From assembly GCA_963716255.1 (NCBI GenBank), contig OY970303.1, positions 480,001-544,000 on the forward strand: a stretch of 64,000 bases of DNA, given 5' to 3'. Under the pieces are notes generated by a model. It worked only from the letters and a program-made list of their open reading frames with translations. It was not told the origin of the DNA and searched no databases. This DNA comes from an uncultured Gemmatimonadales bacterium. GTDB taxonomy: Bacteria > Gemmatimonadota > Gemmatimonadetes > Longimicrobiales > Longimicrobiaceae. The translations under genes and the position numbers were made by a program. Below, one piece after another: positions 12,595-64,000 of the stretch; the first letter of the stretch is position 1; the number at the start of each line of letters is the position of its first letter.

Positions 12595-12700
12595 GGCCCT
12601 CACCCGGCGGCCTTAGAGCCGCCACCCTCTCCCAATCCTGGGAGAGGGGGCCAACTGCGGGTCCGGTGCAGTGCTCCCCCTACTCCCGCTTGCGGGGGAG
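12595..12700. repeat. REP-like palindromes
   Basis: ccctctccc-aatcct-gggagaggg and ctcccgc-tt-gcggggg hairpins; reverse-complement relative of 2360-2425. Confidence 0.7.
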
Positions 12701-12704
12701 GGGG

Positions 12705-12883: not shown

Positions 12884-12893
12884 AAAACAAGCT

Positions 12894-13940: not shown

Positions 13941-14000
13941 CTGGAACTCCTCGCCGGATCGGCGGGCTGACGTGTACGTGCTGCTGCCTGGACGAACCGC

Positions 14001-20708
<6,708 letters not shown>

Positions 20709-23405: not shown

Positions 23406-26375
23406 TTACTCTTCGATCTTTTCCGTGCGCCTCACAGCTTTCCCGATTAACGGCAGCTGACTGAGCGACATCCTCACAAGGTCCAGGAACGACTTGTCAG
23501 ACAAACGCTCATCCATCTTCAGCTGCAGCGCCCCAAGCAATGGGACCAGGATCACGCCGGCAATCAACAGCAGTGGAAGGACGAAGGGGGAGACATTCTC
23601 TGCCAGCACGCCCAGAGCGGCGAGGACGATGACCACCGCGAACAGGTAGAACGAGCCGTTAGCCCACGCGCTCTGGACCCGGGCCGGCTTCGGGGATGGA
23701 CGATTCACGGTTTCCTCCTGGTGAATTGCCGTATGCGGCGCCATAACGACCACCCGCTCCACGGGGCCATGGAACTGCGTGCCGGGTACAGGAGTTCCCT
23801 CGTACGGCACTTTCCCTTCCGGGATCTCCCCCTTCAGCAGCTGTTCACGCGCCCCGATGTCATCGACCAGACTGAAGACGTCCACCATCTCGTAGCTCTT
23901 CTGGCACTGGATCTCGGTCCTCCGATCCGCCACGAACCGCCGCAGTGTCTCGAACGGGTAGAAGTTCGGCTCCTGGCTCGGCTTGCAGATTCCACAGTTG
24001 CAGGGAATCAGCTTGTTGTATTTGAGCTGGGTGTAGGTGGAATGGATCCGGTCCATCTCGTAGACGACGAGGGTCAACAGGTCCTTCTTGTGGGCACCGG
24101 CGACCCGGATCTGGAGCTCTCGCTTCCCGTAGTGCTCCACGACCTCCGCTCTCGTCCGCTCCTTCTCCAGGACCACACCGGTCTTCCAGACGAGCCGCTG
24201 CCCCTCGATCAACGGGTTCATCGCCACGATGACCTGGGTGACGATGCCCTTCGGCATGAACTCGTAGGTGTAGCGGAGGATCAGGTTGTCGGTCTCGTCC
24301 CATGGATACTCCGGCTGGTTCTCGGTCAGCCGCTGCGGAGCGATGTAGCGGTTCTTGGAACCGGGGACCGGGTAGCAGAGGCCGAACCGCATCATCAGCT
24401 GAAGCAGCTCGTCGAGCATGTTCGCGTATTCGTCCCCGGCCCAGATGTTCTCCAGGTCATGCCGGGTGAAGCGACCCTGCTGGTTGATGACATTGCGGTT
24501 GTCCAGCACCTTGTAGACCGCATCGGTTCCCCACTTTGGCTTCAGGATCACCGCTTTCTTCAGGATGGGATCGTCATGGAAGTGAAGGATCACTCCCAAG
24601 TCGTGCAGGTAGCCGCTGAGCTGGAGCTTGTCCCGTCGCGCATCGAACCCGAACCTCCCGCACAGCTCGAAGAATTCGTCCAGGCTGATGTAGTTGCGCG
24701 GATCTCCCTCCAGCGCCTTCCGCACCTCGACCCAGCGCTTCGGCAGCGGAGACCCGATGTGCGGGAGATGAGCGATCCGGTGCTGAATCTCGTCGCGGAT
24801 CTCTCCCACGCCGCGGTTGGTGGCGAAGTTGGCGGCGAGCGCGTCCTTGAGGCCGCCGAACTGCCCCCGCAAAGCCCGCTCGTTGATCTCCCGGTGCCGG
24901 TCCTTCTTTTCGTTCTTGATGATGAGCAGCGGGCTCCTGTCGCTGAGCAACTCGACGATGCTGAGCCAGTAGTGGAAATCCGTGTCTTCCTTTCGTGTGT
25001 CGGCCACCAGCGCGTAGAGGGATCGCCTGGTGAGGAAGAACTGGTGCGTGGCGTGGTAGATCTCCTGCCCGCCGAAGTCCCATATGTTCGCCTGGAAGGT
25101 TCGGCCGTTCGGGAGTGGGAAGCGCCAGTAGGCGACGTCGATCCCGGCGGTGCTCTCCTCGTCTTTGAGGACGTACTCGGGGTCCTGGAGCTTCTTGGCC
25201 AGCGTCGTCTTCCCGGCACCGCCCTCTCCTACGATGATCAGCTTGGCCTCGTAGAGATAGTCGGTTCCTTGGGCCTCAAGCTGGCGGAAGTACTCTCTGA
25301 TCGCATCAAGCCCTCGGCCGACAATCTCCAACGGAGGTACTTCGACCAGATTGCCGAATAAATCAATAGATTGAAGCTCCGGCATGGACAGAATGCGGGA
25401 TGACACTTTCCGGATTCGGTTCCCTCCAGGACCATTGTCATAGTTGCCAAAAGACAGACGCTTTAGTGAGTAGAGATTGTGGACGGAACCGGGAATTTCA
25501 GTGAAGCGAGCACCGGCAAGGTTGAGCACCTCTAGTCGCTGAAGGTTACCGATGCTCTCCGGCAAAGAGGACAACTGCGTCTGACTCAAACTCAGCAGCC
25601 TCAAATTTGCGAGGTTCCCAATATCTTCCGGCAATTCGTGGATTGGATTATTGTCGAAACTGAGGCTCTGAAGGCTGACGAGATTGAGAACCACACTAGG
25701 TAATTGCTCAAAGCTATTATCGCTGAGGTCCAACAGTGCCAAGTCCCGCAATTTGGAGATCGCCTCCGGAAGGCTCGAAAGCTGATTTCCCTCCAGACTG
25801 AGGCTCTGCAGGTTTTTCAGCTCGCCTATCCAATCTGGAACAGCATGCATCTGCATTCGTATGATCGTGAGGTCACGCAAGCGCCTAAGCGTTCGAACCT
25901 CCTCGGGAAAGGTCTCCTGTGCCGTATGCAAAGAAATCTTTAGGCTCTCAAGTGACTGGAGCTGTGAGAGCCACGGGGGCACAGTCATTCCACGTACGGT
26001 CCCGAGCGCCAATGTTTTCAGCCCTTGCAACTCGCCGAGCGAATCAGGAAGCTCTATATAGTCGTTGAGATCAAGGTCGAGATCTACCAAGTTCGACAAT
26101 CGGCCGATTGAGGCCGGAATGGATACCAGCTCGTTCCAGCGAAGGTTCAGGACCCGCAGGTTCCGTAACTCTCCGATCGCTTCAGGAAGGGAGGCGATCC
26201 GATGCCCCCCCAAGTGAAGCTCCTCCAGTTGTACAAGCTCGAAGACCTGCTGTGGGACTTGCGCCAATTTCTCGGCGTCCGGTGCATCTGGATCGACGCT
26301 CAGGTCGAGAACTATGAGCGAGTTCTTCTTCGCGGCTTGGATCTTCTTCTGGATCTCGCGAGGAATCTCATTCAT
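23406..26375 (-). CDS. Prokaryotic Roco protein: LRR-Roc GTPase-COR with a C-terminal two-helix hydrophobic domain
   Basis: About 13 LRRs (LxxLxLxxNxLxxLP); GEGGAGKTT P-loop; WDFGGQEIYHATHQFF; COR motifs YLHDLG and FMPKGI; CNCxxC; hydrophobic C-terminus. Start chosen at MNEIPRE; an in-frame start at 26474 is possible. Confidence 0.9.
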   Translation of the reverse strand: MNEIPREIQKKIQAAKKNSLIVLDLSVDPDAPDAEKLAQVPQQVFELVQLEELHLGGHRIASLPEAIGELRNLRVLNLRWNELVSIPASIGRLSNLVDLDLDLNDYIELPDSLGELQGLKTLALGTVRGMTVPPWLSQLQSLESLKISLHTAQETFPEEVRTLRRLRDLTIIRMQMHAVPDWIGELKNLQSLSLEGNQLSSLPEAISKLRDLALLDLSDNSFEQLPSVVLNLVSLQSLSFDNNPIHELPEDIGNLANLRLLSLSQTQLSSLPESIGNLQRLEVLNLAGARFTEIPGSVHNLYSLKRLSFGNYDNGPGGNRIRKVSSRILSMPELQSIDLFGNLVEVPPLEIVGRGLDAIREYFRQLEAQGTDYLYEAKLIIVGEGGAGKTTLAKKLQDPEYVLKDEESTAGIDVAYWRFPLPNGRTFQANIWDFGGQEIYHATHQFFLTRRSLYALVADTRKEDTDFHYWLSIVELLSDRSPLLIIKNEKKDRHREINERALRGQFGGLKDALAANFATNRGVGEIRDEIQHRIAHLPHIGSPLPKRWVEVRKALEGDPRNYISLDEFFELCGRFGFDARRDKLQLSGYLHDLGVILHFHDDPILKKAVILKPKWGTDAVYKVLDNRNVINQQGRFTRHDLENIWAGDEYANMLDELLQLMMRFGLCYPVPGSKNRYIAPQRLTENQPEYPWDETDNLILRYTYEFMPKGIVTQVIVAMNPLIEGQRLVWKTGVVLEKERTRAEVVEHYGKRELQIRVAGAHKKDLLTLVVYEMDRIHSTYTQLKYNKLIPCNCGICKPSQEPNFYPFETLRRFVADRRTEIQCQKSYEMVDVFSLVDDIGAREQLLKGEIPEGKVPYEGTPVPGTQFHGPVERVVVMAPHTAIHQEETVNRPSPKPARVQSAWANGSFYLFAVVIVLAALGVLAENVSPFVLPLLLIAGVILVPLLGALQLKMDERLSDKSFLDLVRMSLSQLPLIGKAVRRTEKIEE

Positions 26376-49041: not shown

Positions 49042-50103
49042 ATGACAACGCAACGCCGCTTTCAGATCTTCGTCGCGTCGACCTCCTGGGATCTCATCGC
49101 CGAGCGGCAAACGGTGGTGAGCGCGATTCTGGGTGCCCATCACTTTCCCGCGGGAATGGAATATTTCGCTGCGGAGCACCGACTCCCGACCGATCTGAGC
49201 AGGCAGTGGATTGAGGAATCCGACCTCTTCTGCTTACTGCTCGGACCCCGGTACGGCTCGATCGACCCAGAGTCTGGAAAGAGCTTCACGGAATGCGAAT
49301 ACGATCTCGCAATGTCACTGGGGAAGCACGTATGCGCGCTCGTTCTGGACGAGGCCTGGATCGATCGCAAGATCCGCGAATCCGATCGCCTGAAAGAGGA
49401 CCTCAGCCAACAGGACACCGTTGCATATCAGGCGTTTCGGAGCAAGGTCAAAGGTTTGCATGTTCGACCCGTCGGCTCCCCGGATGGCATCACGGCGGAA
49501 ATTTCGGGATGGACCAAAGCAGTAGAGGCCAGGGATGACATGAAAGGGTGGGTGCGAGTGGACAGCCACGACCTGTTCGCCCCCGAGCATTTGTACCTGA
49601 ATGGACCCTGGGTCGACGCCGCCTATCTGTCGAAACATGATTTTCCGCCCGACGGACTCGTCTGCTTTGGCAGCCGGTGCATGGTCGAGTGGAAGAGGGC
49701 AAGGCTTCACACGAAGGGATTCAACTATGATTACAAGGGTCGCCAGTGGGGATTCTATCAATCTGACAGTTCCGTTGGAACACCGCTCGACGTGGACTAC
49801 ACGTTCCGTTGGAACACACCGTGGGACCGGGAGTCCTCCAAGCTGGGATGCGGGAGGCTGAAGGTCATCAAGCCGCTGGACCATGCTGGCAACCAGGACG
49901 CGACTTATCGTGGATACTTCTTCACCGAGTCGTCTCTCAGGTTCCAGTACAAGGGCAGGAAGCTCCTCGACAAGGAGCAGGGCCTCCCTCCCGAAAAGGT
50001 CGTGCCTCGGTGGATGGAGCACCTGTCGCGCGAACTCGGGTGTCCGATCGCTACGCAGGAGCAGGTGGCCAGCGTGCTAGGCGGCAAGGGCGCTGTGTGG
50101 TGA
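49042..50103 (+). CDS. DUF4062-domain protein with an unknown beta-rich C-terminal domain
   Basis: FQIFVASTSWDLIAER, PAGMEYF, IEESDLF, GPRYGS, SFTECEYDLA; visibly lower GC. Confidence 0.82.
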   Translation: MTTQRRFQIFVASTSWDLIAERQTVVSAILGAHHFPAGMEYFAAEHRLPTDLSRQWIEESDLFCLLLGPRYGSIDPESGKSFTECEYDLAMSLGKHVCALVLDEAWIDRKIRESDRLKEDLSQQDTVAYQAFRSKVKGLHVRPVGSPDGITAEISGWTKAVEARDDMKGWVRVDSHDLFAPEHLYLNGPWVDAAYLSKHDFPPDGLVCFGSRCMVEWKRARLHTKGFNYDYKGRQWGFYQSDSSVGTPLDVDYTFRWNTPWDRESSKLGCGRLKVIKPLDHAGNQDATYRGYFFTESSLRFQYKGRKLLDKEQGLPPEKVVPRWMEHLSRELGCPIATQEQVASVLGGKGAVW

Positions 50104-50773: not shown

Positions 50774-53700
50774 TCAGCTCTGGCACCCGGTGTTCTTGAT
50801 CATCCCGAAGATCCTGTGTGCCGCGGGGTTGGCGATGCCACCGGAGGCGTTGAGGGGGATGCGGCCGTACCGGTTGAGGGTGACCGACCCGTTCTCGTTG
50901 CCGCCGACGGTCTCCGCGAATCGGCCACCCGCGTTTTCCACGATCCGCACGACCAGGGTGCAGTGGGAGCTGCCCGACGGCCGGACGTTCTGCCGGTCAT
51001 GCGTGCCGTCCTGCCAGAAGGCCCGGCGCAGGTTGCTGTAGCTGTGCGTGGTCAACCGCCCGTCCACCTCGCGGTTCATGCACAGCAGGTCGCCAGGCTG
51101 GACGGTGGTCTCGTTGACGATCTCGAGGGAGTCGAGGAGCCAGAACGGACGGCTGGTGTCGCTCCGCTCGCGGTTGCGGAGCGCGCCCACGATGTAGTGG
51201 ATGTGCGCCCCGGCGAACTCGAAGCCGTGCGTCCGCCGCACCCCTGCCTGGCTCATCACGTAGCAGATGAATGCGGCGCTCCACGGGAAGTTGCGGTCGT
51301 TGCGCGCCGAGGCCGCCGCGGCCACCGCGGCGTTGGCCCCTGGGACCGCTCCCCAGTAACGCTGGAGCGCGGGAAGTCGTCCGGGATCGTTCTCCGGGAT
51401 CGGCGCGCCGTTGCGCATCCAGTCCGCCAGCTCGCGGAGCGCGACGCCGGCGATGGTCTGGCCCAGCATGCACCAGTTGATCCCCGGCGCGGCCTGGAGT
51501 GGGGCCGCGCCGGCCACGGGGTGCGCGGCGCGATAGACGCGCAGGGCGCGCGCCGCGTGGCCTCTACGGGTGGTGAAGACGGCCTGCACCCTGGGATGGG
51601 TACGGGGGAGGAGGGCGCCGTTCTCCAGCAGGCTTCCCGGCACCTCGAAGCGGTAGACGACCTCGTCGGCCGAGTCGTTCACCGTGACGTTCGCCTGGGT
51701 CACGAGCCGATGGACGGCCGCGTAGCCGTTCCGGAGCTCGCTTACCAAGTAGTCGAGCTGGGCATCCATGTTGAACAGGATCGCGGAGCCCAGCGCCCGG
51801 CTCTGGTAGCCGTGCCGGAACAGCCCCGCGCGACGGGCGGAGGAGGTCCACTGCGCCAGGCCGATCCCCGGCAGGCGCGGCCCCTGCTGGGCGGCCGGGC
51901 TGCGGTTCATCACCTCGTCCGCCGTGAAGTCCCTGGTGCCGCCGGCGAAGGCGGGCGCCCGCATGGGCGTGGCCGCCGCGCTCCCCTCGATGCGGCTGGG
52001 GAGGACGCCGGACTCGGCCCACAGGTTCCCCACCAGCCCCGCCGCGCCGTTCACCGGGAAGGCGTGCTGGTTCACCAGGCACTCCATCACGTACAGGATG
52101 CGGTCGTCCGCGCTCACCCGCGGCCAGTCGGCGGTGGGGCCGCTGGCCGGCACCGCTGCGGCCTGGAGGGCGAACGCGCCGTCCTCGCGGACCAGCGGGA
52201 CCACGCCGGGAGAGACTCCCGGGTCCTCCAGCGCCGCGGCGGACGGGTAGCGCTCGAAGAGGCCGAGCGGCGCGCCGTACGCGTGGCCCGTGGCGCTTCG
52301 CCCCGTGGCTTCGAAGCGCGCCGGGAAGCCGGCCGGGTTGTACTCCCAGTGCCAGGGCTCGCGCCGGTACGGGAACCAGCCGTGCTCGCGCCCATGCAGC
52401 GCCATCCACTTGTAGACGGGTGAGCGGTACATGGCGACGATGTTGCTCATGGGCCGCGTGGTGATCTCGCGGACGCTCAGCCCCGGCACGCTCAGCAGCA
52501 GGTCGATCGCCAGGCCGTAGCAGTGCGCGGAGACGCGCTGCGCCACGGCGCTGGCGTTGGGATTCTTCGCCGCCAGCCCCTGCTGCGTGGCCAGGCTGCG
52601 CCACGCCGAGCCGATGCGCAGCGTCACGCCGTCGGCGCGGGCGGCGGCGCGCATGGCCACGTACGCGTCCTTCGCGTCCGGGTAGAGGCGGAAGCGCGTC
52701 TCGTCCGGCACCGCCTGGACGACCGAGTCCACGTCATGGTAGCGGATGGAGGTGACGCGCCGCTCGGGCACCCGGGCGGCGAGCGCGTCGAAGAGCGCGG
52801 TGGGCTCCACCGAGCGGTTCTGGTCGTTGCCGGGGAAATCTGTCCGCGACCAGTCCACCCCGGAGAGGAAGTGGCTGCGGCGCGCGGCGTCGGAGATCAG
52901 CTCGATCCCCGAGCGGCCGGTGTCGGCGATCCACGATGCGACGGCGGAAGCCAGCGGCGCGCGGGCGGCCGGGGCGGCGGCCAGCCAGGCGCGGACGTCG
53001 TCGTCCACGGCCAGCGCCTCCACGTAGCCGTATCCGCCGTGGACGCCGGCGTATCCTGCACCTTGGCCGGCGCTGGCCGGCTCGGCCTCCTCCGCCGGGT
53101 AGGCGTCATCGTCCAGGGCATGGCCGTGTGCGGCGGGCGCCAGACGCACGCTGGCGCGGACGTCCTGCAGCAGCGTGGGTCCGAAGGTGCCGGGGATCTC
53201 GTCGTGCCCGACCGTGGTCGCCTCGGCGCGGTAGGCGTCGCGGAGCGCGTCGCCGGCGCGGGGGAGGGAGCGGCCCACCATCTCGGACGCGGTGCGGGTG
53301 CCTCTTCCGTACAGGATGCGCAGCCCCCCGCCCCGCGCGCGCAGGTCGCCGGCCCCGAGCGCGCGGTCGGCGGCGATGCGGGCGAGCGCCCACCCCTCGG
53401 CGTTGGCGCCCGAGCCGTAGAGAGCGTCGAAGACGTGCACCTCGTGCGGGTTGCAGGCCGCGCGCGAGCTTCTCCACCCCAGCAGCTCGTTGAGCGGCGA
53501 GCCGCCGCCGGAGTGAGCGGTGAGGATCAGCCGCGACGTCCGCGGCGCGCCGGAGGGGCGGCGCAGCACCTCGCGCGCGAACCAGGCGAGCGAGTAGGCG
53601 ATCAGCGCCTCCAGCCCCGCCCCGCTCCCGGCCAGGAGCGCCGGGAAAGTGTAGGCGTCCGGGCGCGGCCGGGACTTGCCCTGGGGAGCGTGATTGTACG

Positions 53701-54706
53701 CGTTGAGCCGGGTCTGGTACTCCTGGCTGGTGATCTTCCGCCCGCGCGGGACGATGCCGAGCGTCGGACGCGCACGGCCGCCCAGCCTGAGGCCGCTCTT
53801 CTCGGCCTTGCGGCGGGTCAGCGCCGCGTCGGGCTCCATCGACTGGTAGCCGTGCAGGTGCACCACGACATCGATCTCGGCGCAGGCGTCGGGGACTTCG
53901 TTCCAGACGAGATACAGGTTCTCGCCGGTGCCGCCATGGCCGCGGAGCGGGTCCGACGCCCCCGCCGTGGCGGTGTTCACGTACCGCTCGCCGGCGGCGA
54001 TGACGCCGAGCGCGACCGCCGAGGGCGAGCCGAAGACGGACTCGTACTCCTCGTGGTGGTGGGCCCGGCGGCCGTTGCCGTTGTGAATCATGACGTCCTC
54101 GCGGGGGGTGTCGGTGAAGGGAGGGAGGGAGACGCGGGGGCGGCCGTCGCGGCTCTCCCGCACGCGTGACCGCGAAGAGCCGCGACGGCCGCCCGCGTGG
54201 AGCACGTGCGCCTGCACGCCGATCAGGTCGCTTGCGGCGCGGAAGTTGGCGGCCAGCGTCCGCCAGGGGAGCGTGTAGCGCTCGCCCCTGCCGACGGGCC
54301 AGGGATCGTTGATGCGCACCCAGGTGCCGTCTGGTGTGCCGTCGCCGTGCATCCCGGCGACCACGATGGAGTGCAGCCCGGGGCTGGCCTCGCCCAGCCA
54401 GACGGGGCCGTAGCGGGCCAGGACGCGGCGCAGCGCCTCCCCCGTCCAGCTGTCGCGCCGCTCCTGGGTGAGCCCCCAGGCGCGGGCCAGCGCGTCCACG
54501 TCGGCCGGGTGGAGGCCGGCGCGGTACGCCTCCCACGTCCCGGAGCCGGTGGCCACCTTCTGCGGATCGACGAAGATCGAGTCGCGCCAGCCGATGATCA
54601 TCGCCGCGGCGGCGGCCCAGCAGCTCATCCCGGTCAGCTGCGGGACGAGCGGGACCTCGTTCCACACGTCGAAGCGGCGGGCGACGCGCGTTTCGGTCTC
54701 AGGCAT
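50774..54706 (-). CDS. Polyenzyme: papain-like Cys protease + alpha/beta-hydrolase + M15/VanY-like D,D-peptidase + phage-tail-lysozyme-like + DUF2272/CHAP-like domain
   Basis: Protease: PQLTGMSCWAA..HSIVV..INDPWP. Hydrolase: HLHGY..TAHSGGG..FDALYG. M15: SAWRS..SAHCYGLAIDL..EPWHWEY. Lysozyme: GLVGNLWAESG..GIGLAQWT..AQLDYLVSEL. CHAP-like: PWSAAFI..PGDLLC..SHC..GGN. ATG 54706 overlaps the upstream stop. Confidence 0.8.
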   Translation of the reverse strand: MPETETRVARRFDVWNEVPLVPQLTGMSCWAAAAAMIIGWRDSIFVDPQKVATGSGTWEAYRAGLHPADVDALARAWGLTQERRDSWTGEALRRVLARYGPVWLGEASPGLHSIVVAGMHGDGTPDGTWVRINDPWPVGRGERYTLPWRTLAANFRAASDLIGVQAHVLHAGGRRGSSRSRVRESRDGRPRVSLPPFTDTPREDVMIHNGNGRRAHHHEEYESVFGSPSAVALGVIAAGERYVNTATAGASDPLRGHGGTGENLYLVWNEVPDACAEIDVVVHLHGYQSMEPDAALTRRKAEKSGLRLGGRARPTLGIVPRGRKITSQEYQTRLNAYNHAPQGKSRPRPDAYTFPALLAGSGAGLEALIAYSLAWFAREVLRRPSGAPRTSRLILTAHSGGGSPLNELLGWRSSRAACNPHEVHVFDALYGSGANAEGWALARIAADRALGAGDLRARGGGLRILYGRGTRTASEMVGRSLPRAGDALRDAYRAEATTVGHDEIPGTFGPTLLQDVRASVRLAPAAHGHALDDDAYPAEEAEPASAGQGAGYAGVHGGYGYVEALAVDDDVRAWLAAAPAARAPLASAVASWIADTGRSGIELISDAARRSHFLSGVDWSRTDFPGNDQNRSVEPTALFDALAARVPERRVTSIRYHDVDSVVQAVPDETRFRLYPDAKDAYVAMRAAARADGVTLRIGSAWRSLATQQGLAAKNPNASAVAQRVSAHCYGLAIDLLLSVPGLSVREITTRPMSNIVAMYRSPVYKWMALHGREHGWFPYRREPWHWEYNPAGFPARFEATGRSATGHAYGAPLGLFERYPSAAALEDPGVSPGVVPLVREDGAFALQAAAVPASGPTADWPRVSADDRILYVMECLVNQHAFPVNGAAGLVGNLWAESGVLPSRIEGSAAATPMRAPAFAGGTRDFTADEVMNRSPAAQQGPRLPGIGLAQWTSSARRAGLFRHGYQSRALGSAILFNMDAQLDYLVSELRNGYAAVHRLVTQANVTVNDSADEVVYRFEVPGSLLENGALLPRTHPRVQAVFTTRRGHAARALRVYRAAHPVAGAAPLQAAPGINWCMLGQTIAGVALRELADWMRNGAPIPENDPGRLPALQRYWGAVPGANAAVAAAASARNDRNFPWSAAFICYVMSQAGVRRTHGFEFAGAHIHYIVGALRNRERSDTSRPFWLLDSLEIVNETTVQPGDLLCMNREVDGRLTTHSYSNLRRAFWQDGTHDRQNVRPSGSSHCTLVVRIVENAGGRFAETVGGNENGSVTLNRYGRIPLNASGGIANPAAHRIFGMIKNTGCQS

Positions 54707-57700
54707 GGCGGCCGTCCTCCGCAGGGACGGTGGAGCGGTCGTCCACCCGCCCGTCCGCGCCGATCGTCCGCGTGTCCCGAGCGGAGGAAGGCACGCTCTC
54801 GATGGCGGTCCCGCCGCCGATGGTGAGAACCACGGGGCCGCGGTAGTCGGCCGGCACCGTGGCGAGCGGTCCGGCCGTCGATCTGTCGCCGAAGGTCCAG
54901 GCAACTTCCACTTCGCCGGAGGAATCGAAGTCCGCCCAGAATCGGAAGCCTCCGGCGTGGCGCGCGGCGACGCGGCGCACGGGGATCACGGCGTGGATCG
55001 GTTCGCCGGGATCGTCCGGGGCGGTGTCGGCGTTCCAGCCGTCCGTCGCCGCCACGCGCACCCGGTCGAGCTCGCCGACCGTGAGCCGGCTGAACGGGAT
55101 CTCCGCGGAGTCCTGGCAGCCGCGCAGGCGGAGGACCGGACTCCATCCCCGTTCGCTTCCGACCTCGATCGTGGCGGAGGAGTGGGCGGAGCCGGAGTGG
55201 TCGTATCCGAAGGTGATCCGCTCCCCATCCATCTCCACCTCCGTGAGCTCCGGAGCGCCCGTCAGGCGGTCGACGCGGCGGACGGGCGGGACGGCGGACT
55301 CTTCGTCGTCGCAGAAGGCGTGGAAGCGCGGCGCGCCTTCGCGGCGCAGCTCCAGGGCGACCACGTCGTCGGAGACGGGGAGGAGGACGACGGCGCGCGC
55401 GGGGCGGTCGCCCGTCATCGCGCGCACCGGGGCGGAGGAGCGGACCCGGCCCGCGCGGTCGAGCCCGACGGCGCGGAGGTCGGTCGCGAACGGGGCGCCG
55501 GAGCCCGCGCCGCGCTCCTCGACGCGCAGCGGCTGGAGCCGCACGGAGCCGTCACCCTCCAGCGTCCCGACGATGCGGAGCCGGGTGGTGCGCGGCGCGG
55601 CAGAGGGCGGCTCGGCATCCAGCAGGTCACCGAGGGCGCCGGGGGTGGAGACGGCCACGGCGCGCGCGCCCTCCGCCGGCTCCATCCGGAAGAACTCCCT
55701 CGACGTCGGCGGGGTCGGGACGACGGCGACCCAGATCGACTCCTCGAAGCCGGGGCAGCGGGCGGCGAGCGCGTTCAGCCGTTCGAGGATCTCCAGCGTC
55801 ACCGGCACGTCGCGCCCCTCCGCCGCGCCGTCGAGCGACAGCTCCGCGTCGTCGATCCAGGCGGGCTCCGAAGCCTGCACGTCGATCCCCCGGTAGGAGC
55901 GCGCTTCCTCGACGGCCTCCACCACGTCGCCCGCGGACACGCGCCGCAGCTCGCGGCCGACCGCAGCAGGGCGCACGACCACCAGCGAGCGGGTGCGGAG
56001 CGGGGCGAAGCGGATGGGGCCGAAGTCCCGCCGGTCCTCGATCTCGCCGTCCGGGCCGCGATAGACCACGGTGCCGGTCAGCCCGTCCACGGCCAGCTTC
56101 CCGGGAAGGGCGGCGGTGGCGCAGCCGGCTTCGACCCGCATCCCGATCCTCGTTTCGCCGATGAGCAGGTCGGCGTGGCCGGGGGCGTCGGCAGCGGAGA
56201 GCAGGGCGGCGACCTGTGCCTCCACCCCTTCCACCAGCACGGGCCCGGAGACGCGGAGGTCGGCGCCGCGGACGTTGACCGCGCTCGGCGGCTGCGACCG
56301 GGCGGGGTTGCTTCCGCCGACGATCCTGAGCGGCACGGCGGGGACGCGGCCCGGCTGGGCGACGTCGACGCGGCGGATGCGGACGCGGACGCGCGCGGCC
56401 AGCTCCCGGCGCACCGGGCCGCCGCACGCGCCCTGGACCACCAGCACGAACGCCGCGCGCGAGTGGTCTTCCGGGGCCCTGATCTCCAGGTGCCCCTCCG
56501 CCTCCACCGCGCCCTGCTTCGGCTCGATGGAGACGGCGCGCGCGCCGGCCACGCGCCAGGAGAGCCGCAGCGCCCCGCCTGGGTCGACCACCCCGGGCGC
56601 CAGCGACGCCTCCAGGACCACGGGCGCGCCTCCGTCGAAGCGGGCCTGCGGCGAGCGCGGCGGCGTGGGCGGCCAGGGGAGGAGCGGGATGGATTCGACG
56701 GGGACGGGACCGCCGCGCAGCGCCGGCAGCGTGTCGTTCCGCTCGCTCCACGCCAGGCGCAGCGCCTCGCGCCCGCGGTTGCTGCGCTCCCGCAGCGCCG
56801 GGTCCGCGAAGCCGATCCACCCCGCGTGCGCGCCCTCGGGGACGATGACGCCGATGGTCCCGGCGGCGGCGTCCACCACCCCGGGGAGCTGCGAGACGGA
56901 CGGGTGCCCCTGCGCGGAGAACACCACCTCGGCCAGTTCCTCCTCCAGGAGCGGGAGGAAGTGGGCGGAGTCGAGAGCGCGCTCCGCGCTCGCGGGGACC
57001 TCACCGGCGGCGAGGAATAGGATCGGCCCGTCGCCGATCAGCGGCTCAACGCGGAGGGTGACGGGCGTGCCGGGGCAGGCGTCGCGCGGCTCCACCTCAA
57101 CGATGGAGCCGGTGCCGGCGGCGTCCCAGGTGGTCGCGATCACGTCCGAGACGACGTACTCGAACAGGAGCTCCAGGCACGCCCACCGCGCCCGCTCGCA
57201 GGGATCGGTGAGGAAGGAGGCGATGGAGGCAGAGAGGCGGCGGTCCTGCCCGTTGTCGCTCCTTCCGCCCAGCCCGGCAAGCAGCGCCTTCACCTGCGAC
57301 ACCGACATCCCGGCGGCCAGCGAGCGCGCGAGCGCCTCGGCCGGGCCGGCGGCGATCGCCAGCCCCAGCACGTTGTTGATCAGCGGCTCGGCGAGCCCGG
57401 CCGGCATCCCCACCCTCCCGGCGGCGAGCGCCACGATCACCAGCCCGCCCATGTCCACCACGCCGTCGTCGCACGGGACGGCTGGCACGCTGGCCGCGAA
57501 CAGGCTCGCGTTCCCGCCGTCGCCCATGACGGCGCGGATGGCCGCGAGCGGCGGCACCTGCGTGGCGGCGAGGGCCAGGAGGAGACGCAGGCGCTCGGCG
57601 GCCAGGACGTCGTCGCCCAGGGCGCCCCCGGCGTCCTTCGCCAGCGCCTCCAGGAGCGAGAGCGGCGCCAGGAGGAGGGCTCGCGCGCCGTCCAGCGCCG

Positions 57701-57815
57701 GGTCCTGGGCCACGGCCGCGTCCAGTGCCCCCAGCAGCGCCTCGTGGCGCCGCGGATCGAGCACCACCAGCCCCTCGGCAGCCGCGTTGCTCGCCATCAT
57801 CAGCGGATCAGACAT
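54699..57815 (-). CDS. Large hypothetical protein: helical N-terminus followed by several Ig/TIG-like beta-sandwich segments
   Basis: 1038-aa GC3-biased ORF; IVEVEPRDACPGTPVTL, PGGALRLSWRVAGA, VRVAATDGWN; no signal peptide, no HExxH. Confidence 0.7.
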   Translation of the reverse strand: MSDPLMMASNAAAEGLVVLDPRRHEALLGALDAAVAQDPALDGARALLLAPLSLLEALAKDAGGALGDDVLAAERLRLLLALAATQVPPLAAIRAVMGDGGNASLFAASVPAVPCDDGVVDMGGLVIVALAAGRVGMPAGLAEPLINNVLGLAIAAGPAEALARSLAAGMSVSQVKALLAGLGGRSDNGQDRRLSASIASFLTDPCERARWACLELLFEYVVSDVIATTWDAAGTGSIVEVEPRDACPGTPVTLRVEPLIGDGPILFLAAGEVPASAERALDSAHFLPLLEEELAEVVFSAQGHPSVSQLPGVVDAAAGTIGVIVPEGAHAGWIGFADPALRERSNRGREALRLAWSERNDTLPALRGGPVPVESIPLLPWPPTPPRSPQARFDGGAPVVLEASLAPGVVDPGGALRLSWRVAGARAVSIEPKQGAVEAEGHLEIRAPEDHSRAAFVLVVQGACGGPVRRELAARVRVRIRRVDVAQPGRVPAVPLRIVGGSNPARSQPPSAVNVRGADLRVSGPVLVEGVEAQVAALLSAADAPGHADLLIGETRIGMRVEAGCATAALPGKLAVDGLTGTVVYRGPDGEIEDRRDFGPIRFAPLRTRSLVVVRPAAVGRELRRVSAGDVVEAVEEARSYRGIDVQASEPAWIDDAELSLDGAAEGRDVPVTLEILERLNALAARCPGFEESIWVAVVPTPPTSREFFRMEPAEGARAVAVSTPGALGDLLDAEPPSAAPRTTRLRIVGTLEGDGSVRLQPLRVEERGAGSGAPFATDLRAVGLDRAGRVRSSAPVRAMTGDRPARAVVLLPVSDDVVALELRREGAPRFHAFCDDEESAVPPVRRVDRLTGAPELTEVEMDGERITFGYDHSGSAHSSATIEVGSERGWSPVLRLRGCQDSAEIPFSRLTVGELDRVRVAATDGWNADTAPDDPGEPIHAVIPVRRVAARHAGGFRFWADFDSSGEVEVAWTFGDRSTAGPLATVPADYRGPVVLTIGGGTAIESVPSSARDTRTIGADGRVDDRSTVPAEDGRHA

Positions 57816-57930: not shown

Positions 57931-59346
57931 TCAGTCGTGCGACTCCGGCGGATGCGCCTCCGCTTCCGGGGCCGGGGCCGGTGTCGGAGCCGGAGTCGCA
58001 GTCGGCGCGGGCTCGGAGCTCGGCGGTGTCGCTCCCGACGCCGTGTCGCCGCCGCCGCTCCCGCCGGCCGCGGAGAAGTCGCGGCGCTGGCGCAGGCTGC
58101 GCGCCTCGTCGGAGTCGGGGGCGGGGGGCGGCGTGGCGGGCAGCTCCGGGACTGCCTGGAAGTTGGCGGGCCGGGTGCGGCGCTCGCCGGTGTCGGCGGG
58201 GAGGAGGCTCTCCAGCTGGTGCTCCGCCACCGGGTTCATCGAGCGGTTGCGGATGTCGCGGACTGCACCCTCGCTCGTCATGCGGTTGAGCTGGATCGGC
58301 TCGGTGTGGAAGTTCACTTCCACGTCGGAGCGCAGCCCGGCCCTCACCGCGATCTCCTCGCGCGAGAACTGCTCGTCGGAGGTCACGTAGCCCACGGTGG
58401 CCTGCATGTTGGCGCTGGCCCCCCACATCCCGGTGCCGAAGGAAGCGCTCCCGCCGGTGGTGACGCGAGTGTCGGCGCGCTCGGCCTTGTTCTGCTCGGC
58501 GGTGCTCCGCGCATCCACCTGCAGGTTCATCGAGGCGTGGATCCGCCCCGCGTCCACCACGATGCGGTTCATCCCCATCAGCAGCATGGTGGAAAGCATC
58601 GCCTGGCGGTCGCGGGCCAGCTTGCGCTTCACCAGCGGGAGGAGCGTCTCCTCCAGCTCGTCCTCCTGGATGGTGGAGACCTCCTCCTCGGTGGCGTCGA
58701 GCGCGCTCTTCAGCTCGTCCTCCTCCGGCATATCCGCGCTCTCGCCCAGTTCCAGGATGGGCGGGGCCCCCTCGGCGGTGACCACGCGGAAGACCGGGAA
58801 GCGCTGCGCCGCCCAGTCCATCGCCCGGCCGGTGGTGATGCTGCTGGCGGCGAACTGGCCGGTGCTCATCCCCACCGCCCCCAGCAGGTCGGCGTACGCC
58901 GTGAGCTGCTGGATGGTGGATGTGTTCATCGCCTGGAAGACGCCCGTGATCAGCGAGGTGACGAAGCCGGGGAAGTCGATGGCGTTCCTGACGTTCTGCA
59001 GCACCCCCGCGGCCGAGTCCACCGCCGTGCGGCGATGGAAGTCGCCCGCCGCCTGCGCCCGGGCGAGCGCCGACTTCCCCGGGTCGGAAGCCGACATCCC
59101 GGCCGCGACCGCAGCCGGCTCCCCGGCGGGAGACGTGGAGAAGGCGGGGGAGGTGGACGACCTCCGGCGGCCGATCTGGTCCGTCAGCCGCCCGTCCACT
59201 TCCATCAGGTCGCAGGCGGTGGCGCAGACGCGCACCATGCTCTCGGCCAGGCGCCGCTGCAGCGCCGGGTCGCGGCGCAGCTCGGGCGTACGCTCGACGA
59301 CGGCGCGGACGGCGCGCCGGACGGTATCGAGCGTCCCACGGCTCAT
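57931..59346 (-). CDS. Uncharacterised paralog family, member 4 (most divergent)
   Basis: IDFPGFVTSLITGVFQA..QQLTAY, MLLMGMNRIVV, VEVNFHTE; ATG abuts the upstream stop. Confidence 0.85.
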   Translation of the reverse strand: MSRGTLDTVRRAVRAVVERTPELRRDPALQRRLAESMVRVCATACDLMEVDGRLTDQIGRRRSSTSPAFSTSPAGEPAAVAAGMSASDPGKSALARAQAAGDFHRRTAVDSAAGVLQNVRNAIDFPGFVTSLITGVFQAMNTSTIQQLTAYADLLGAVGMSTGQFAASSITTGRAMDWAAQRFPVFRVVTAEGAPPILELGESADMPEEDELKSALDATEEEVSTIQEDELEETLLPLVKRKLARDRQAMLSTMLLMGMNRIVVDAGRIHASMNLQVDARSTAEQNKAERADTRVTTGGSASFGTGMWGASANMQATVGYVTSDEQFSREEIAVRAGLRSDVEVNFHTEPIQLNRMTSEGAVRDIRNRSMNPVAEHQLESLLPADTGERRTRPANFQAVPELPATPPPAPDSDEARSLRQRRDFSAAGGSGGGDTASGATPPSSEPAPTATPAPTPAPAPEAEAHPPESHD

Positions 59347-60266
59347 CACGCCGCCCCGGCCGACGCGCCCCAGCTTTCCGCGTCGCGGATGACCGGGGCG
59401 CCCCGCGGGACGCGCACCGCGCCGGCGTCCAGGCGCGCCGCCTCGTCCGCGATCCAGCTGATGATCCGCATCCCCGACTGCGCCCGCGACAGGCGGCCCT
59501 GCACGTCCACCTGCCGCCCCAGGAGGCGGGGCGCGTGCCGGGACACGATCATCCACGGGCTCCCCCCGCCCATCGCCCTCACCACGTCCGCGTTGCGGAG
59601 GATGGAGAGCGCGGACCTCACCTGCGCCACGATGTCGCGCGCCGCGAAGGCCGCGATCCCGACGGCGCGGTTCGACAGCAGCGCTCCCAGTTCTTGCGCC
59701 TGCGCGGCGGCGCGGGCCTCCAGGCTCCCCGTCCCCAGGTCCTGCCTTGACCGGCCGATGGCCCTGAGCGTCTCCGCCAGCGCCTGGAGCTTCGGCTCCA
59801 CCGCGTCGCCCGGCTGCGGCTGCGCGGGGTCGCCCAGGAGGCGGGCGAAGAGGGCGCGCCGCTCGGCGCCGGTGAAGCGGTGGTCGCGCGACCTCCAGAA
59901 GCGGACCAGCTCGTGGACGGCCGCGCCCAGCGGCTCCATGATCGCCCCGGCCGCCACCCCCTGCGCCAGCGCCTCCACCAAGGGGAGGAGCCCGGCGGCC
60001 TCCAGCTCCGCCGCCCAGAAGAGCACCCCCGCAACGCGGAGCTGTGCGTCCACCAGGCGCCCGCCGCTCAGGGGCGGAAGGTCGATGACCCCCAGCGCGG
60101 CGGGACCGTACTGGCCGCGCACCGCCTCCATGTGCCGGGCCAGCAGCTCGTCGCAGTGGTCCAGCCCGGAGAGCTCCGGCGCCGCGTCGGCCACCGCGAG
60201 CGCGGCGGCCTGCGCGCTCCCGGGGACCGGGAAGATCGGGACCTGGGAAAGGAATCGGGAACTCAT
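59346..60266 (-). CDS. Uncharacterised, predicted all-helical protein
   Basis: ATG 60266 overlaps the upstream TGA (ATGA); 306 aa, amphipathic helical pattern. Confidence 0.8.
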   Translation of the reverse strand: MSSRFLSQVPIFPVPGSAQAAALAVADAAPELSGLDHCDELLARHMEAVRGQYGPAALGVIDLPPLSGGRLVDAQLRVAGVLFWAAELEAAGLLPLVEALAQGVAAGAIMEPLGAAVHELVRFWRSRDHRFTGAERRALFARLLGDPAQPQPGDAVEPKLQALAETLRAIGRSRQDLGTGSLEARAAAQAQELGALLSNRAVGIAAFAARDIVAQVRSALSILRNADVVRAMGGGSPWMIVSRHAPRLLGRQVDVQGRLSRAQSGMRIISWIADEAARLDAGAVRVPRGAPVIRDAESWGASAGAA

Positions 60267-61375
60267 TTCTGCGCCCGCTCGTTGACGGACTGGATCTGGA
60301 CGGACGAGGCCATCTTGTCGAGCGGGAAGGTCTCGCTCTTGAAGTTCACGCGGACCTCGCCGGTCAGGTTTGCCTTCATCTGCGCCTTGGACTCGCTGGT
60401 GTCGTCCACGCTCGACGTCACCACCGTCTTGTGCGTCTCCTGCGAGTCGTCGAAGCTGCTGCTGAACCACCCGCCGCCGTCGTGGGTCTGCCTGGCGGTG
60501 TCCTTCTGGTCGTAGAGCGAGGCGCGCGACTGGCGGTTGGCGTTGTCGTTGGCCTTCACGTCAAAGACCACCTTTGCGTTGATCAGCCCGTCGGTCACCA
60601 CGATGCGGTTGATCCCCAGAAGGACCATGGTGGCGAGCTGCTGCTGGCGCATCCTGGCCATCTCCAGCTGCGCCTGGCGCGTCAGCCGCGCCTCGCCCTC
60701 CTCTTCGTCCAGATCGAAGTCCTCCTTGATCCCCAGCGTGCTCTTCACGCCGGCCAGCGCCTTCTCCTCGTCGTCGACCCCGGGGCGCATCCGCAGCCGC
60801 GGCTTGCCGCCGTTCGTGTCGACGGTGAAAGTCTCGGGGAAGCGGTCGCTCAGGTAGTCGCGCGCCTGGTTCTGGGAGATGTGGTCCGAGGCGAACTGGT
60901 CGACGCTCTTGACCACCCCCTCCAGAAGCTTCCCGTACGCCTGCATCTGCCGGATGGAGGAGTCGACGATGGAGGTGAAGACGCCCTCGATCAGCCCCGA
61001 GACGAACTTGGGGAAGTCGACCGAGTCGACCAGCTCCTTGAAGGCTTTGGTCCCGGCCTCCATCGCGCCGGCCTTGAAGTCCCTCCCCACCACGTCCTGC
61101 TTGTTCGCCAGCCGGTCGCCCGTCTTCTCGGCGGCCGTCTTCTTCTCGGCCAGCGACTCGGCGAGCTCCGTCTCCGTCCCCATCGCCCCGGCGAGCTCGG
61201 GCTGCCCGGCCGCGGGGTCGGCCAAAAAGGCCACCACGTCCACCAGGCCCTGCGCAATCCGCCTGCGGTCGGGCTCGGGCATCCGTTTCCAGGCGTCGGA
61301 GCGCTCCAGGAGGCCCTTCACCTCGGAGCGGACCACGTCCTGCCGCTCGGGCGGGAGGTTCTTCAGCGCGGTCAT
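60263..61375 (-). CDS. Uncharacterised paralog family, member 3
   Basis: True start MTALKNLPP at 61375 (ATGA overlap); VDFPKFVSGLIEGVF, GINRIVVTDG, GEVRVNFKSET. Confidence 0.88.
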   Translation of the reverse strand: MTALKNLPPERQDVVRSEVKGLLERSDAWKRMPEPDRRRIAQGLVDVVAFLADPAAGQPELAGAMGTETELAESLAEKKTAAEKTGDRLANKQDVVGRDFKAGAMEAGTKAFKELVDSVDFPKFVSGLIEGVFTSIVDSSIRQMQAYGKLLEGVVKSVDQFASDHISQNQARDYLSDRFPETFTVDTNGGKPRLRMRPGVDDEEKALAGVKSTLGIKEDFDLDEEEGEARLTRQAQLEMARMRQQQLATMVLLGINRIVVTDGLINAKVVFDVKANDNANRQSRASLYDQKDTARQTHDGGGWFSSSFDDSQETHKTVVTSSVDDTSESKAQMKANLTGEVRVNFKSETFPLDKMASSVQIQSVNERAQK

Positions 61376-62544
61376 GCGGTCCCCCGCTGGGCCGGGGCGG
61401 GCGCGGGAGCGCGGGCCGCCGCGGGAGCGCCGGCCGCGGGGGCCGCTCCCGGCTGCGAGAGGTAGTTCATCTGGTCCATCTGCAGCGCGTCCAGCATGCG
61501 CTCGGGCGGGAGGGTCTCGCTCTTGAAGTTCACGCGCACCTCGCCGGTGAGCTGCGCCTTCATCGCCGCCTTCGACTCGCTGGAGTCGTCGATGGAGCTG
61601 CGCACGGTGGTCTTGTGCTTCTGCTGGCTGTAGCCGCCCGCCGCCCCCCAGGGGAGCGCCGCAGTGGCGACGCCGCCCGTCTCGGACTGCGCCTGGTCGT
61701 CCAGGGAGGCCTTCGCATTCCGCCTGGCGTTGTCGCTGGCCTTGACGTCGAAGATCACCTTGGCGTTGATGCGGCCGTTGGTGACCACGATGCGGTTGAT
61801 CCCCAGCATCACCATCAGCGCCATCATCTTCTGGCGCTGGCGGGCCATCTCCAGCTTGGCGGCGGCGATGAACTTCTTCTCGCTTTCGGCGCTTGAAAGG
61901 TCGACCCGCTCCGTCGTCCGCGCGAACTGCTGGAGGCCGGCGGTGTCGCCGTCGCCGTCGTCGCTCGCCTGCATCAGGCGGGAGGTGCCGTCCTCGTCGC
62001 GGGAGATGCGCACGAGCGAGGGGAAGCGCTGCGCCACCTGCTCGCGCGCCTGGTCGTCGGAGATGTGGTCCTCGGCGAACTGGCCGACGGTCTTTGCGGT
62101 GGCGGCCAGGAGCTCGCCGTACGCCTCCATCTGCTGGATGGAGGCGTCGACGATGGCCTGGAAGACACCCTGGATCAGTCCGCTGACGAACGCCGGGAAG
62201 TCCACCGTCTGCACGAGGTTGCCAAACTCCTGCACGCCCTGCCTCATGGCGCCCGCCTCGAAGTCGGTCCCCACCTGGCCTGGCGCCTTGGCCAGGCGCT
62301 TCTTCAGGTCGTCCACCGGCCCCATGGCCTCGGCCATCCCCGCGCTCCCCGGCGGGTCGGCGGCGTCGAGCCACCCCGGGTCCCTGGCGAGGTACGCCGC
62401 CACCTTCACCATGTCCTGGGCGAAGGCCTTCCGGTCCGCGGGGCCCATGGTCTGCCACGCGGCCGACTGCGAAAGGACGTTGCCGACCTCCTGCCGGACC
62501 AGTCCGACGTCGTCCGGCGGGGCCGCGAGGGGCGTCGCGTCCAT
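61372..62544 (-). CDS. Uncharacterised paralog family, member 2
   Basis: VDFPAFVSGLIQGVFQAIVDASIQQMEAY, GINRIVVTNG, GEVRVNFKSET. Confidence 0.9.
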   Translation of the reverse strand: MDATPLAAPPDDVGLVRQEVGNVLSQSAAWQTMGPADRKAFAQDMVKVAAYLARDPGWLDAADPPGSAGMAEAMGPVDDLKKRLAKAPGQVGTDFEAGAMRQGVQEFGNLVQTVDFPAFVSGLIQGVFQAIVDASIQQMEAYGELLAATAKTVGQFAEDHISDDQAREQVAQRFPSLVRISRDEDGTSRLMQASDDGDGDTAGLQQFARTTERVDLSSAESEKKFIAAAKLEMARQRQKMMALMVMLGINRIVVTNGRINAKVIFDVKASDNARRNAKASLDDQAQSETGGVATAALPWGAAGGYSQQKHKTTVRSSIDDSSESKAAMKAQLTGEVRVNFKSETLPPERMLDALQMDQMNYLSQPGAAPAAGAPAAARAPAPAPAQRGTA

Positions 62545-62547
62545 GGA

Positions 62548-63921
62548 TCAGGCCGCCGGCGCGGGGGCGACGGGCGTCTGCGCGGGGGCGGGGGCGGGCG
62601 GGGACGCCGCGGGAGCTCCGGCCGCTGCGGGGGCGCCCGGGGCCGGCGCGCCCCGGCCGGCGCTCTTCACGCGCTCCAGCTTGAAGATGTCGGCCTCGGC
62701 CACCAGCTTGTTGAGGTCCACCGTCTCCGACTTGAAGTTGAGCGACACCTCGCCGCGCAGCTGCCCCTCAGCCGAGACCTCGGCGTTGGTCGCCGTCTCG
62801 GTCATGTTGGACAGCGTGATCACCGGCGTGGTGGTGGTCTGGTCGACCCCGCGCGTCCACCGCGAGCTCTCGCCCGACTTGCTGGACCCGCGGTTCCACC
62901 ACCCGCGCGAGTTGCTCTCGTTGTAGTTCTCCCCGGTCTGCTCCGAGCTCTCGCGCTCCGACTGCGTGACCACGATGTTTCCCTGGTTCTCGTAGTCGAA
63001 GGTCTGCGCGTACGAGTTCATCGTGTCGCGGGCGCGGAAGTCGAAGCGCAGCTTCGCGTTGATCTTTCCGTCCGTGACCACGATCCGGTTGATCCCCATC
63101 AACAGCATGGTCGCCAACAGCGTCTGGCGGCTGCGCGCCAGGTCGTTGCGCGCGGCGGGGACCAGCTTCTCCTCGATGACCTCCTCGTCCAGGTCGTCGA
63201 CGTCCTCGTCCAGCCCCAGGTCGGCGCGGAAGTTGGGAAGCGTCATCCCGCCGGCGTTCGGCCGCGGCCCCACCTTGGGCTGGCCGTCCACGATGTTGAC
63301 CTGCATCAGCGTGGGATACTTGCCCACCAGGTGGTCGCGCGCCTGGTTCTCGGTGACGTTCTGGTCGCGGAAGTCGGAAAGCGACATCGCCACCGACTGC
63401 ACCATCTCGCCGTACGCTTTCATCTGCTGGACGGAGGCGTCGACCACGGCCTGGAAGACGCCCTGGATCAGCTCGGCGACGAAGTTGGGGAAGTTGACCT
63501 CGCGCAGCAGCTCGCCCGCCTGCTGCACCCCCATGGCGATCCCGCTCCCGAAGTCGCCGGCCTTCTTGGGCCCGATGTTGTCGGAACGCCGGGTGGTGGC
63601 GCCGCCGCTCCCCTTCAGGAAGGCGCCGCGGTCGGTGGTCGTCACCCCCGTCTGCCCCTGTCCGGGGCGGCCGGGGATCCCCCCGACGCCGGTCCTGTCG
63701 TCCATGGAGACGGCGAAGGGGTCGCCCCCGCCGCCGCCCTCCGCGGCCACCTGGCTGAGCCGGTTGGCGGCCAGCGTGGCGACGACCGCCTCGGTGTTCC
63801 GGCGGATGCTCTCCTGGTCGGCCGGGGGGAGCGCGTGGTACGACGCGCTCCGCCCCAGCATCTCGCCCACCTGCCGCCGGACCTCGTGGTCCTGTTCGGG
63901 CCGGCTCAACGTGCTCGTCAT
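62548..63921 (-). CDS. Uncharacterised paralog family, member 1 (longest central Ser/Thr-rich segment)
   Basis: VNFPNFVAELIQGVFQAVVDASVQQMKAY, GINRIVVTDG, GEVSLNFKSET; GGAGG SD upstream. Confidence 0.9.
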   Translation of the reverse strand: MTSTLSRPEQDHEVRRQVGEMLGRSASYHALPPADQESIRRNTEAVVATLAANRLSQVAAEGGGGGDPFAVSMDDRTGVGGIPGRPGQGQTGVTTTDRGAFLKGSGGATTRRSDNIGPKKAGDFGSGIAMGVQQAGELLREVNFPNFVAELIQGVFQAVVDASVQQMKAYGEMVQSVAMSLSDFRDQNVTENQARDHLVGKYPTLMQVNIVDGQPKVGPRPNAGGMTLPNFRADLGLDEDVDDLDEEVIEEKLVPAARNDLARSRQTLLATMLLMGINRIVVTDGKINAKLRFDFRARDTMNSYAQTFDYENQGNIVVTQSERESSEQTGENYNESNSRGWWNRGSSKSGESSRWTRGVDQTTTTPVITLSNMTETATNAEVSAEGQLRGEVSLNFKSETVDLNKLVAEADIFKLERVKSAGRGAPAPGAPAAAGAPAASPPAPAPAQTPVAPAPAA

Positions 63922-63957: not shown

Positions 63958-64000
63958 TCAGGCGTGGTATGGGTCGGCGTACGCGGGCGCCGCGGCGTGG
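63958..64000 (-). CDS. 3' end of an upstream gene of the same operon (truncated)
   Basis: Frame HAAAPAYADPYHA* ends 36 bp upstream of the next start. Confidence 0.45.
   Translation of the reverse strand, partial: HAAAPAYADPYHA

Follow-up and report, generated by a model that had tools for sequence, protein, structure and literature searches.

Within a 64,000-nucleotide (nt) stretch of DNA from an uncultured Gemmatimonadales bacterium (contig OY970303.1, positions 480,001 to 544,000; the whole stretch is called the window below), four paralogous genes on the minus strand, A to D, encode proteins with a long segment that is an antiparallel beta-hairpin with its turn at or beside a central Trp. 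Judged by the chemistry of these hairpins, only that of D reads as transmembrane. The hairpin subunits form an unnamed, large family and belong to an apparently undescribed, widespread system, namely a ~12-gene operon whose order is kept across distant phyla.

Each paralog carries one long hairpin

The segments of A to D are 78-110 residues long and contain 21-27% Ser+Thr. A sequence-only reading of this DNA had described them as polar, with a Gly/Trp motif near the centre and arms that pair; all four motifs are indeed present, and our recount of the residues before and after the Trp (46/48, 32/34, 30/35 and 31/31) lies within one of the hand counts given there. In homologs, the segment was taken as the part between two anchors (both found in 513 of 585 sequences; 481 unique; 30 ambiguous ones dropped) and assigned to the classes Z, A, B/C or D, which follow gene order. 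The final set, after D homologs had been added, comprised 251 B/C, 134 D, 92 A and 56 Z segments, with 37 ambiguous ones excluded.

Mean-field covariation on subsets of fixed length, with 1000 column shuffles as the null, gave a clear antidiagonal, and thus the antiparallel register around the Trp that had been predicted, in the D 78-mers (i+j = 73/75, score 10.0), the C-type 81-mers (antidiagonal 76, score 9.4, centred on the Trp), the 86-residue B/C subset (81, score 9.0) and the aligned A segments (107, score 7.5, centre beside W341 of A), none of which was matched by any shuffle. The B-type 82-mers showed a weaker antidiagonal (score 4.4, reached by 12 of 1000 shuffles), and two small Z subsets showed none. 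The AlphaFold2 model of C likewise combines a helical head with two strands, 269-298 and 308-337, that flank W303. Confidence in its hairpin is low (predicted local distance difference test, pLDDT, 45-68), the predicted template-modelling score of the model is 0.44, and the pLDDT for head residues 161-250 is 84-98. The expectation that paired arms lengthen together is also borne out, as the arm lengths of 151 single-Trp non-redundant segments co-vary (Spearman 0.51, relatedness uncorrected). Segment length is nearly fixed in class D, where 130 of 134 have exactly 78 residues, and varies from 73 to 131 in class A. The paralogs and their hairpins lie as follows, with gene E, which is unrelated, between C and D (lengths in amino acids, aa):

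Paralog A, 62548..63921, minus strand: 457 aa; hairpin polar and the longest of the four; 73-131 residues across its class, in which the tip Trp is not conserved
Hairpin of A, 62734..63063, minus strand: residues 287-396; covariation centre at residue 340.5; W341/W342 at 62896-62901
Paralog B, 61372..62544, minus strand: 390 aa; tip Gly/Ala-rich and uncharged; hydropathy intermediate
Hairpin of B, 61525..61770, minus strand: residues 259-340; W299 at 61648-61650
Paralog C, 60263..61375, minus strand: 370 aa; helical N-terminal domain (3-52), linker, helical core and a single hairpin with a GGGWF tip
Hairpin of C, 60341..60583, minus strand: residues 265-345; covariation centre exactly at W303 (60467-60469)
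Paralog D, 57931..59346, minus strand: 471 aa; fixed-length, strictly amphipathic hairpin; candidate membrane-spanning subunit
Hairpin of D, 58309..58542, minus strand: residues 269-346; turn at G-M directly before W308 (58423-58425)

Only the D hairpin reads as transmembrane

Transmembrane strands require one hydrophobic face of about 10 residues. When the hydropathy of the better face of each hairpin was averaged over the 12 residue pairs closest to the turn, D reached +1.5 to +1.6 with practically no charges, and 99-100% of 130 sequences lay above 0.5. The C-type hairpins scored -1.5 with 3 charges in 12 (1% of 82 sequences above 0.5), class A -1.1 (0% of 82) and the B-types about 0 (8-12%). 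The window's own paralogs follow this order, with +1.47 for D, -0.25 for B, -1.83 for C and -1.86 for A; hydrophobic and polar residues alternate on both arms of the D hairpin, and the hairpins of A and C are polar on both faces. The earlier suggestion of a membrane-inserting hairpin in every paralog thus finds support for D, with its hydrophobic and uncharged face, but not for the polar hairpins of C and A, B being intermediate.

A similar division applies to the Trp at the tip, which is conserved in D (131/134) and B/C (234/251) but mostly lost in A homologs (19/92), and which is kept in 4 of 56 Z segments. Some aromatic residue lies near the centre in 248/251 B/C and 133/134 D segments, and the tip Trp has a Gly neighbour in 207 of 234 B/C and 122 of 131 D segments. 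One homolog, P0218, has a soluble Inhibitor_I36-like domain, which we take to be beta/gamma-crystallin-like, inserted at the hairpin tip; another, P0352, is a D-class subunit with a Peptidase_C70 papain domain fused at its C-terminus. It is because the faces differ between classes, the tip Trp is mostly missing in A and Z, and P0218 bears a soluble domain at its tip that we read only D as a transmembrane hairpin.

An unnamed family with a patchy distribution

Paralogs A to D have no match in Pfam, NCBIfam or PDB sequences, and Foldseek gave no significant fold match for their family. Among 8000 candidates scored, 1898 were relatives of C, and the family profile retrieved 1920 clusters at 50% identity (E up to 0.001); the nearest named proteins come from Longimicrobium. 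A pattern matched 472 genomic stretches, of which 404 code for a relative; the 80 loci retained carry titles from Pseudomonadota, myxobacteria, Gemmatimonadota, Acidobacteriota, Planctomycetota, Cyanobacteria, Anaerolineae, Gaiellaceae and Chthonomonadales. The spread is patchy, with a match in at least 2 of 41 genomes near the one that holds the window (labelled G000), G000 included. A literature search yielded no description of the system, with the proviso that unnamed proteins are hard to find by words and that supplements on gene neighbourhoods could list it.

The operon and its conserved genes

In G000, the order of genes is sigma-54 activator, U1, Z, a 77-aa gene, Trypco2-like/TIG, S8 subtilase, E-like, U2, A, B, C, E, D, F and G. 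From U1 onward the intergenic gaps are -8 to 115 nt, so that neighbours abut or overlap. Besides the four paralogs, the operon holds:

U2, 63958..64000 (3' end; full gene G000:C1:543958-545043), minus strand: 361 aa; DMATS-fold homolog of tryptophan/indole prenyltransferases
Gene E, 59346..60266, minus strand: 306 aa; not a paralog; homolog of the upstream 541-aa E-like gene
Gene F, 54699..57815, minus strand: 1038 aa; accessory; without a family match
Gene G, 50774..54706, minus strand: 1310 aa; putative cargo with Peptidase_C70 papain, VanY, phage-tail lysozyme and DUF2272 domains
Remainder of the operon, outside the window, G000:C1:545063-554088: E-like, S8 subtilase, Trypco2-like/TIG, 77-aa gene, paralog Z, U1 and sigma-54 activator

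Paralog Z, the fifth, lies 5.4 kb past the window end, and its segment has 70 residues and no Trp. Conservation was counted over the 41 loci of at least 20 kb (long loci). U2 is present in all 41, the Trypco2-like, S8 and E-like genes in 40 and E in 39, where the E and E-like queries cross-match, and F-related genes occur in 11. The core gene order is kept in 39-41 of the 41 loci, which come from many phyla, and a Burkholderia pyrrocinia plasmid shows the same order, its core genes except S8 being annotated as hypothetical. E and E-like constitute a second unnamed family, with no family, structure or Atlas match.

The S8 protein is a clear subtilase (PF00082, E 4e-38) that has kept the Asp, His and Ser motifs. 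A short motif, hydrophobic-Ala-x-Ala/Ser-Leu/Met/Gln, recurs in the otherwise variable linkers of the hairpin subunits and represents a candidate site for this protease; D linkers contain it in 38 of 57 cases (8 on average after shuffling) and B/C linkers in 54 of 140 (16 on average), for instance at residues 94-100 of D and 61-77 of C, and it occurs in G too. The 290-aa Trypco2-like gene owes its name to a match to Pfam PF19631 in 14 of 54 members that stays below the cut-off (best E 0.0067; 14.2 versus 24.2 bits for the G000 protein).

Of 32 upstream and 27 downstream flanking open reading frames (ORFs) scanned, 15 and 10, respectively, contain Peptidase_C70, often together with amidase, CHAP, C92, SLT or trypsin domains. 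A crude hydropathy scan revealed no signal peptide or membrane helix in any gene, and G is likewise without a signal-peptide-like N-terminus. A sigma-54 activator heads the operon in G000 and at locus L106, which suggests regulated expression. At L001:9568-9582 (minus strand), between the sigma-54 activator and U1 and 62 nt ahead of the latter, lies a sigma-54-like site that is not above chance.

Some features around the operon may be recorded here. The ORFs at G000:C1:554940-556108 and 564716-566314, just upstream, are presumably transposase-like and integrase-like, which would be consistent with a mobile island. At the other side, a 353-aa ORF of lower GC content (window 49042-50103, plus strand) faces the operon end, and its N-terminus resembles, as we assume, DUF4062/nucleotide-binding sensor domains. 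Farther away, GC content is 0.58 at 24001-26000 of the window against ~0.74 elsewhere, and three very long ORFs of 2279, 1097 and 2235 aa occupy 2465-20708 (minus strand).

Minimal cyanobacterial versions

A Tolypothrix plasmid and the cyanobacterial genome G1283 hold a reduced version that consists of S8, an E-like gene, one hairpin subunit, a small gene and a Trypco2-like gene, so that the E/E-like family is present even here. Both single subunits have an amphipathic tip and no Trp at the turn, and that of Tolypothrix scores best with the D profile (116 bits versus 91-107). The U2 profile found nothing in the Tolypothrix plasmid, the part of that organism which was searched, or in the G1283 genome, and it did find U2 in G457, a cyanobacterium with several paralogs. 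The two minimal versions are related cases, and such a single-subunit system would offer a minimal one for experiments. The G1283 locus (L114:263-19893) also adjoins a Tn7-like TnsA gene and has a 1277-aa protein with an EndoU nuclease domain downstream.

U2 and a possible prenylation of the tip Trp

The DMATS fold of U2 is well supported by modelling and by profile comparison. The model (pLDDT 91.5) is a ten-stranded ABBA barrel, and its best Foldseek matches are CymD, DMATS1, IptA and PriB (E 3e-13 to 2e-8, template-modelling score 0.56-0.71, identity 12-19%), all of the matches listed being aromatic prenyltransferases. Members match Trp_DMAT (41/72, best E 2e-4) and TIGR03429 (38/72) below the cut-offs, and hhalign against five genomic DMATS-like proteins aligned 273 columns with a probability of 66, controls staying below 0.3. 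The DMATS active site, as given in the available text of PMC11696170, comprises an acceptor-binding Glu, five basic diphosphate ligands and a shield of four Tyr. In U2, residues E60, R72, K146, Y148 and R194 are invariant (72/72) and Y329 nearly so (71/72), such that the Glu, three aligned basic residues and two Tyr of that site are kept, the Lys/Tyr pair after R194 is replaced, and K257 (65/72) can only be assigned to it tentatively. By its fold, U2 is a homolog of Trp prenyltransferases, with putative activity and substrate.

One could speculate that this enzyme prenylates the Gly-flanked tip Trp of the folded subunits and so gives the polar hairpins a lipid anchor, that the subtilase uncaps them and that the D-type spans the bilayer, which would result in a complement-like barrel with division of labour. 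The presence of U2 in all 41 long multi-paralog loci, set against the failure to find it in the two Trp-less single-subunit systems (one genome and one plasmid searched), speaks for this, and so does the Gly beside the tip Trp in B/C and D, given that a flanking Gly helps the prenylation of internal Trp in peptides by PalQ, an enzyme of another fold (available text of PMC13290415). However, Gly is to be expected at any beta-turn, just two cyanobacterial loci, related to each other, supply the contrast in U2 content, and the DMATS active site of U2 is incomplete, and we therefore consider the prenylation scheme as a whole unlikely.

Proposed mechanism and alternatives

The explanation that we favour, although it falls just short of an even chance, is a multi-subunit beta-barrel pore or conduit that is made in the cytoplasm, matured by a protease, spanned by D-type subunits and combined with lytic cargo against other bacteria. 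Each subunit would comprise a helical head and one long hairpin, as the covariation indicates, and the hairpins would pack side by side into a barrel, since a two-stranded ribbon with arms of 35-55 residues cannot be stable alone. Going by sequence chemistry, the D-type would supply the bilayer-spanning band, the tips of B/C would contact the membrane only via Gly-Trp, and A and Z may form soluble tiers, a spike or a lumenal part. The subtilase would cut off the N-terminal helical domain at the linker motif and thereby license assembly, and the DMATS-fold enzyme could either add a lipid anchor or serve as a Trp-binding chaperone. The variable papain, amidase, lysozyme and nuclease genes, finally, could encode effectors that either breach the wall or travel through the pore.

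Several points weigh against such a conduit. The hydropathy scan, with its lack of signal peptides, leaves export unaccounted for. The D hairpin (78 residues) is shorter than those of B/C (81-88) and A (~109), so that a single flush mixed ring would force the charged hairpin faces of A and C across the bilayer and tiers, a spike or concentric barrels would be required; in the membrane attack complex (MAC), according to the available part of PMC6294249, the non-spanning hairpins are the shorter ones, whereas here the spanning-type D is not the longest. The low-confidence hairpin model of C draws on an alignment that overlaps the covariation data and is not independent of them, the linker motif was defined post hoc from the same sequences in which it was counted, and the flanking ORFs were chosen by hand (32 of 46 upstream and 27 of 81 downstream), some being cut by locus ends. 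Clustering of neighbouring ORFs of at least 120 aa, moreover, revealed no conserved immunity-like gene.

This last result would suit a pore that acts on the producer's own inner membrane, that is, a protease-gated suicide or lysis system that serves defence or release and in which the hydrolases would be endolysin-like partners. The lack of signal peptides in the crude scan would be in line with it as well, as would the position of the Trypco2-like gene (a sub-cut-off match) beside a protease, as in the Pepco defence modules in the available text of PMC12642450. On the other hand, the conserved genes identified include no phage-sensor domain, the variable ones are shuffled wall hydrolases plus a nuclease at one locus, as in offensive polymorphic systems, and the sigma-54 activator at the operon head (G000, L106) suggests regulated expression, and we regard self-lysis as a serious but somewhat unlikely alternative. 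The hairpins could also belong to a particle, in which they build a soluble beta-tube, needle or collar, comparable to phage lower collars or the FliF beta-collar, of which only the end touches a membrane. The hairpins of A and C have two polar faces and exceed by far the length that a bilayer requires, P0218 has its soluble domain at the tip, and phage upper-tail/collar proteins and FliF are found among the top non-significant Foldseek rows (E 0.02-0.2). What makes a soluble tube quite improbable in our eyes is the charge-free hydrophobic face of D in nearly all 130 sequences, the amphipathic tip kept by the single-subunit systems, the lack of sheath, baseplate or capsid genes among the identified neighbours and the failure of D to match anything in the phage collection. 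Each of the four paralogs might, finally, contribute an equivalent transmembrane hairpin to a single barrel, with the tip Trp leading. The Trp-centred hairpins of the window and the near-central aromatic residue in almost all B/C and D segments would speak for this reading; given the charged or polar faces of A and C, the loss of the tip Trp in most of the A and Z classes and the variable length of class A, we consider it very improbable indeed. The probability that these four explanations leave belongs to readings not yet thought of.

If the system is a pore or conduit, the beta-barrel formers would gain a new fold family, and wall-lytic effectors a new delivery route that does without signal peptides. 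The pairing of a tryptophan-prenyltransferase homolog with proteins that display a Trp at their tip further raises the question whether an ABBA enzyme can lipidate a full-size protein.

Comparison with known systems

Aerolysin-like beta-pore-forming toxins have one amphipathic hairpin per subunit, with Ser/Thr-rich flanking strands, and an all-beta aerolysin/ETX core. Here, class D has such a hairpin but A and C do not, and the head is predicted to be helical, with no family match. MACPF/CDC proteins possess a four-stranded central sheet and two transmembrane hairpins per subunit, whereas the covariation and the low-confidence model point to one long hairpin on a helical head; A to D gave no Pfam, NCBIfam or PDB sequence match to MACPF/CDC, nor is any among the matches listed (25 of 44 weak families) for 117 members. 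Structural searches gave no significant match that would decide for or against a subunit fold shared with MACPF/CDC, aerolysin or gasdermin.

The nearest named family in the ESM Atlas is DUF2589 (PF11655; score 0.76, a lead only), which shares with the present system tandem paralogs and the succession of helix, strand and Ser/Thr hairpin with a G-W-G-P tip, but is a domain of ~160 aa. The D tip aligned to DUF2589 over 25 columns with an hhalign probability of 70, where six templates had been chosen for having a hairpin; a reversed template still scored 26.5 versus 35.1, so that much of the signal is hairpin composition. None of the 117 members has a Pfam match to DUF2589, and G000 and five operon-bearing genomes contain none above the cut-off. 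DUF2589 may nonetheless be a remote relative of the hairpin family. At L082-L085 and L097-L105, DUF2589 genes stand as adjacent paralogs, one with the Ser/Thr hairpin and G-W-G-P tip and one without, and these pairs may be an unrecognised small beta-barrel system. In comparison with DMATS enzymes, U2 differs in its surroundings, which consist of structural genes; no gene of a small-molecule pathway was recognised in the conserved set.

The MAC, in the available text of PMC6294249, is built from paralogous subunits whose hairpins are unequal in length and charge, some having only an aromatic tip and others spanning the bilayer, which resembles the unequal hairpins of A to D and the roles that we propose for them. 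Pepco proteins, as far as PMC12642450 was available, are bacterial beta-barrels of ~117 aa that form homo-oligomeric 9-10-mers and are activated by proteolysis at a C-terminal tail. A barrel-former beside a protease, basal helices and proteolytic activation would be common to both systems, here as suggested by the genes, and the operon even holds a Trypco2-like gene; its subunits differ from Pepco, however, in their size of 320-470 aa, their very long hairpins and their number of up to five paralogs. The paralogs themselves have no Pfam match to Trypco2 (PF19631) and show no significant profile similarity to it (hhalign P 0.06 or worse, against a two-sequence template). Trypco was defined in PMC7159879, the available text of which mentions no such operon. 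The S8-PTS/ABP systems (PMC9424270 and PMC12582261, each available in part) likewise combine a subtilase or serine protease with variable antibacterial effectors that it processes. They are, in contrast, three-part Gram-positive systems, exported by signal peptides and equipped with immunity genes, in a layout of signal peptide, BetaH and toxin followed by the immunity gene, and lack hairpin subunits and a prenyltransferase in the text available. By this comparison, the newness of the present system would lie in its gene set and protein family, and the proposed pore mechanism would belong to a known type.

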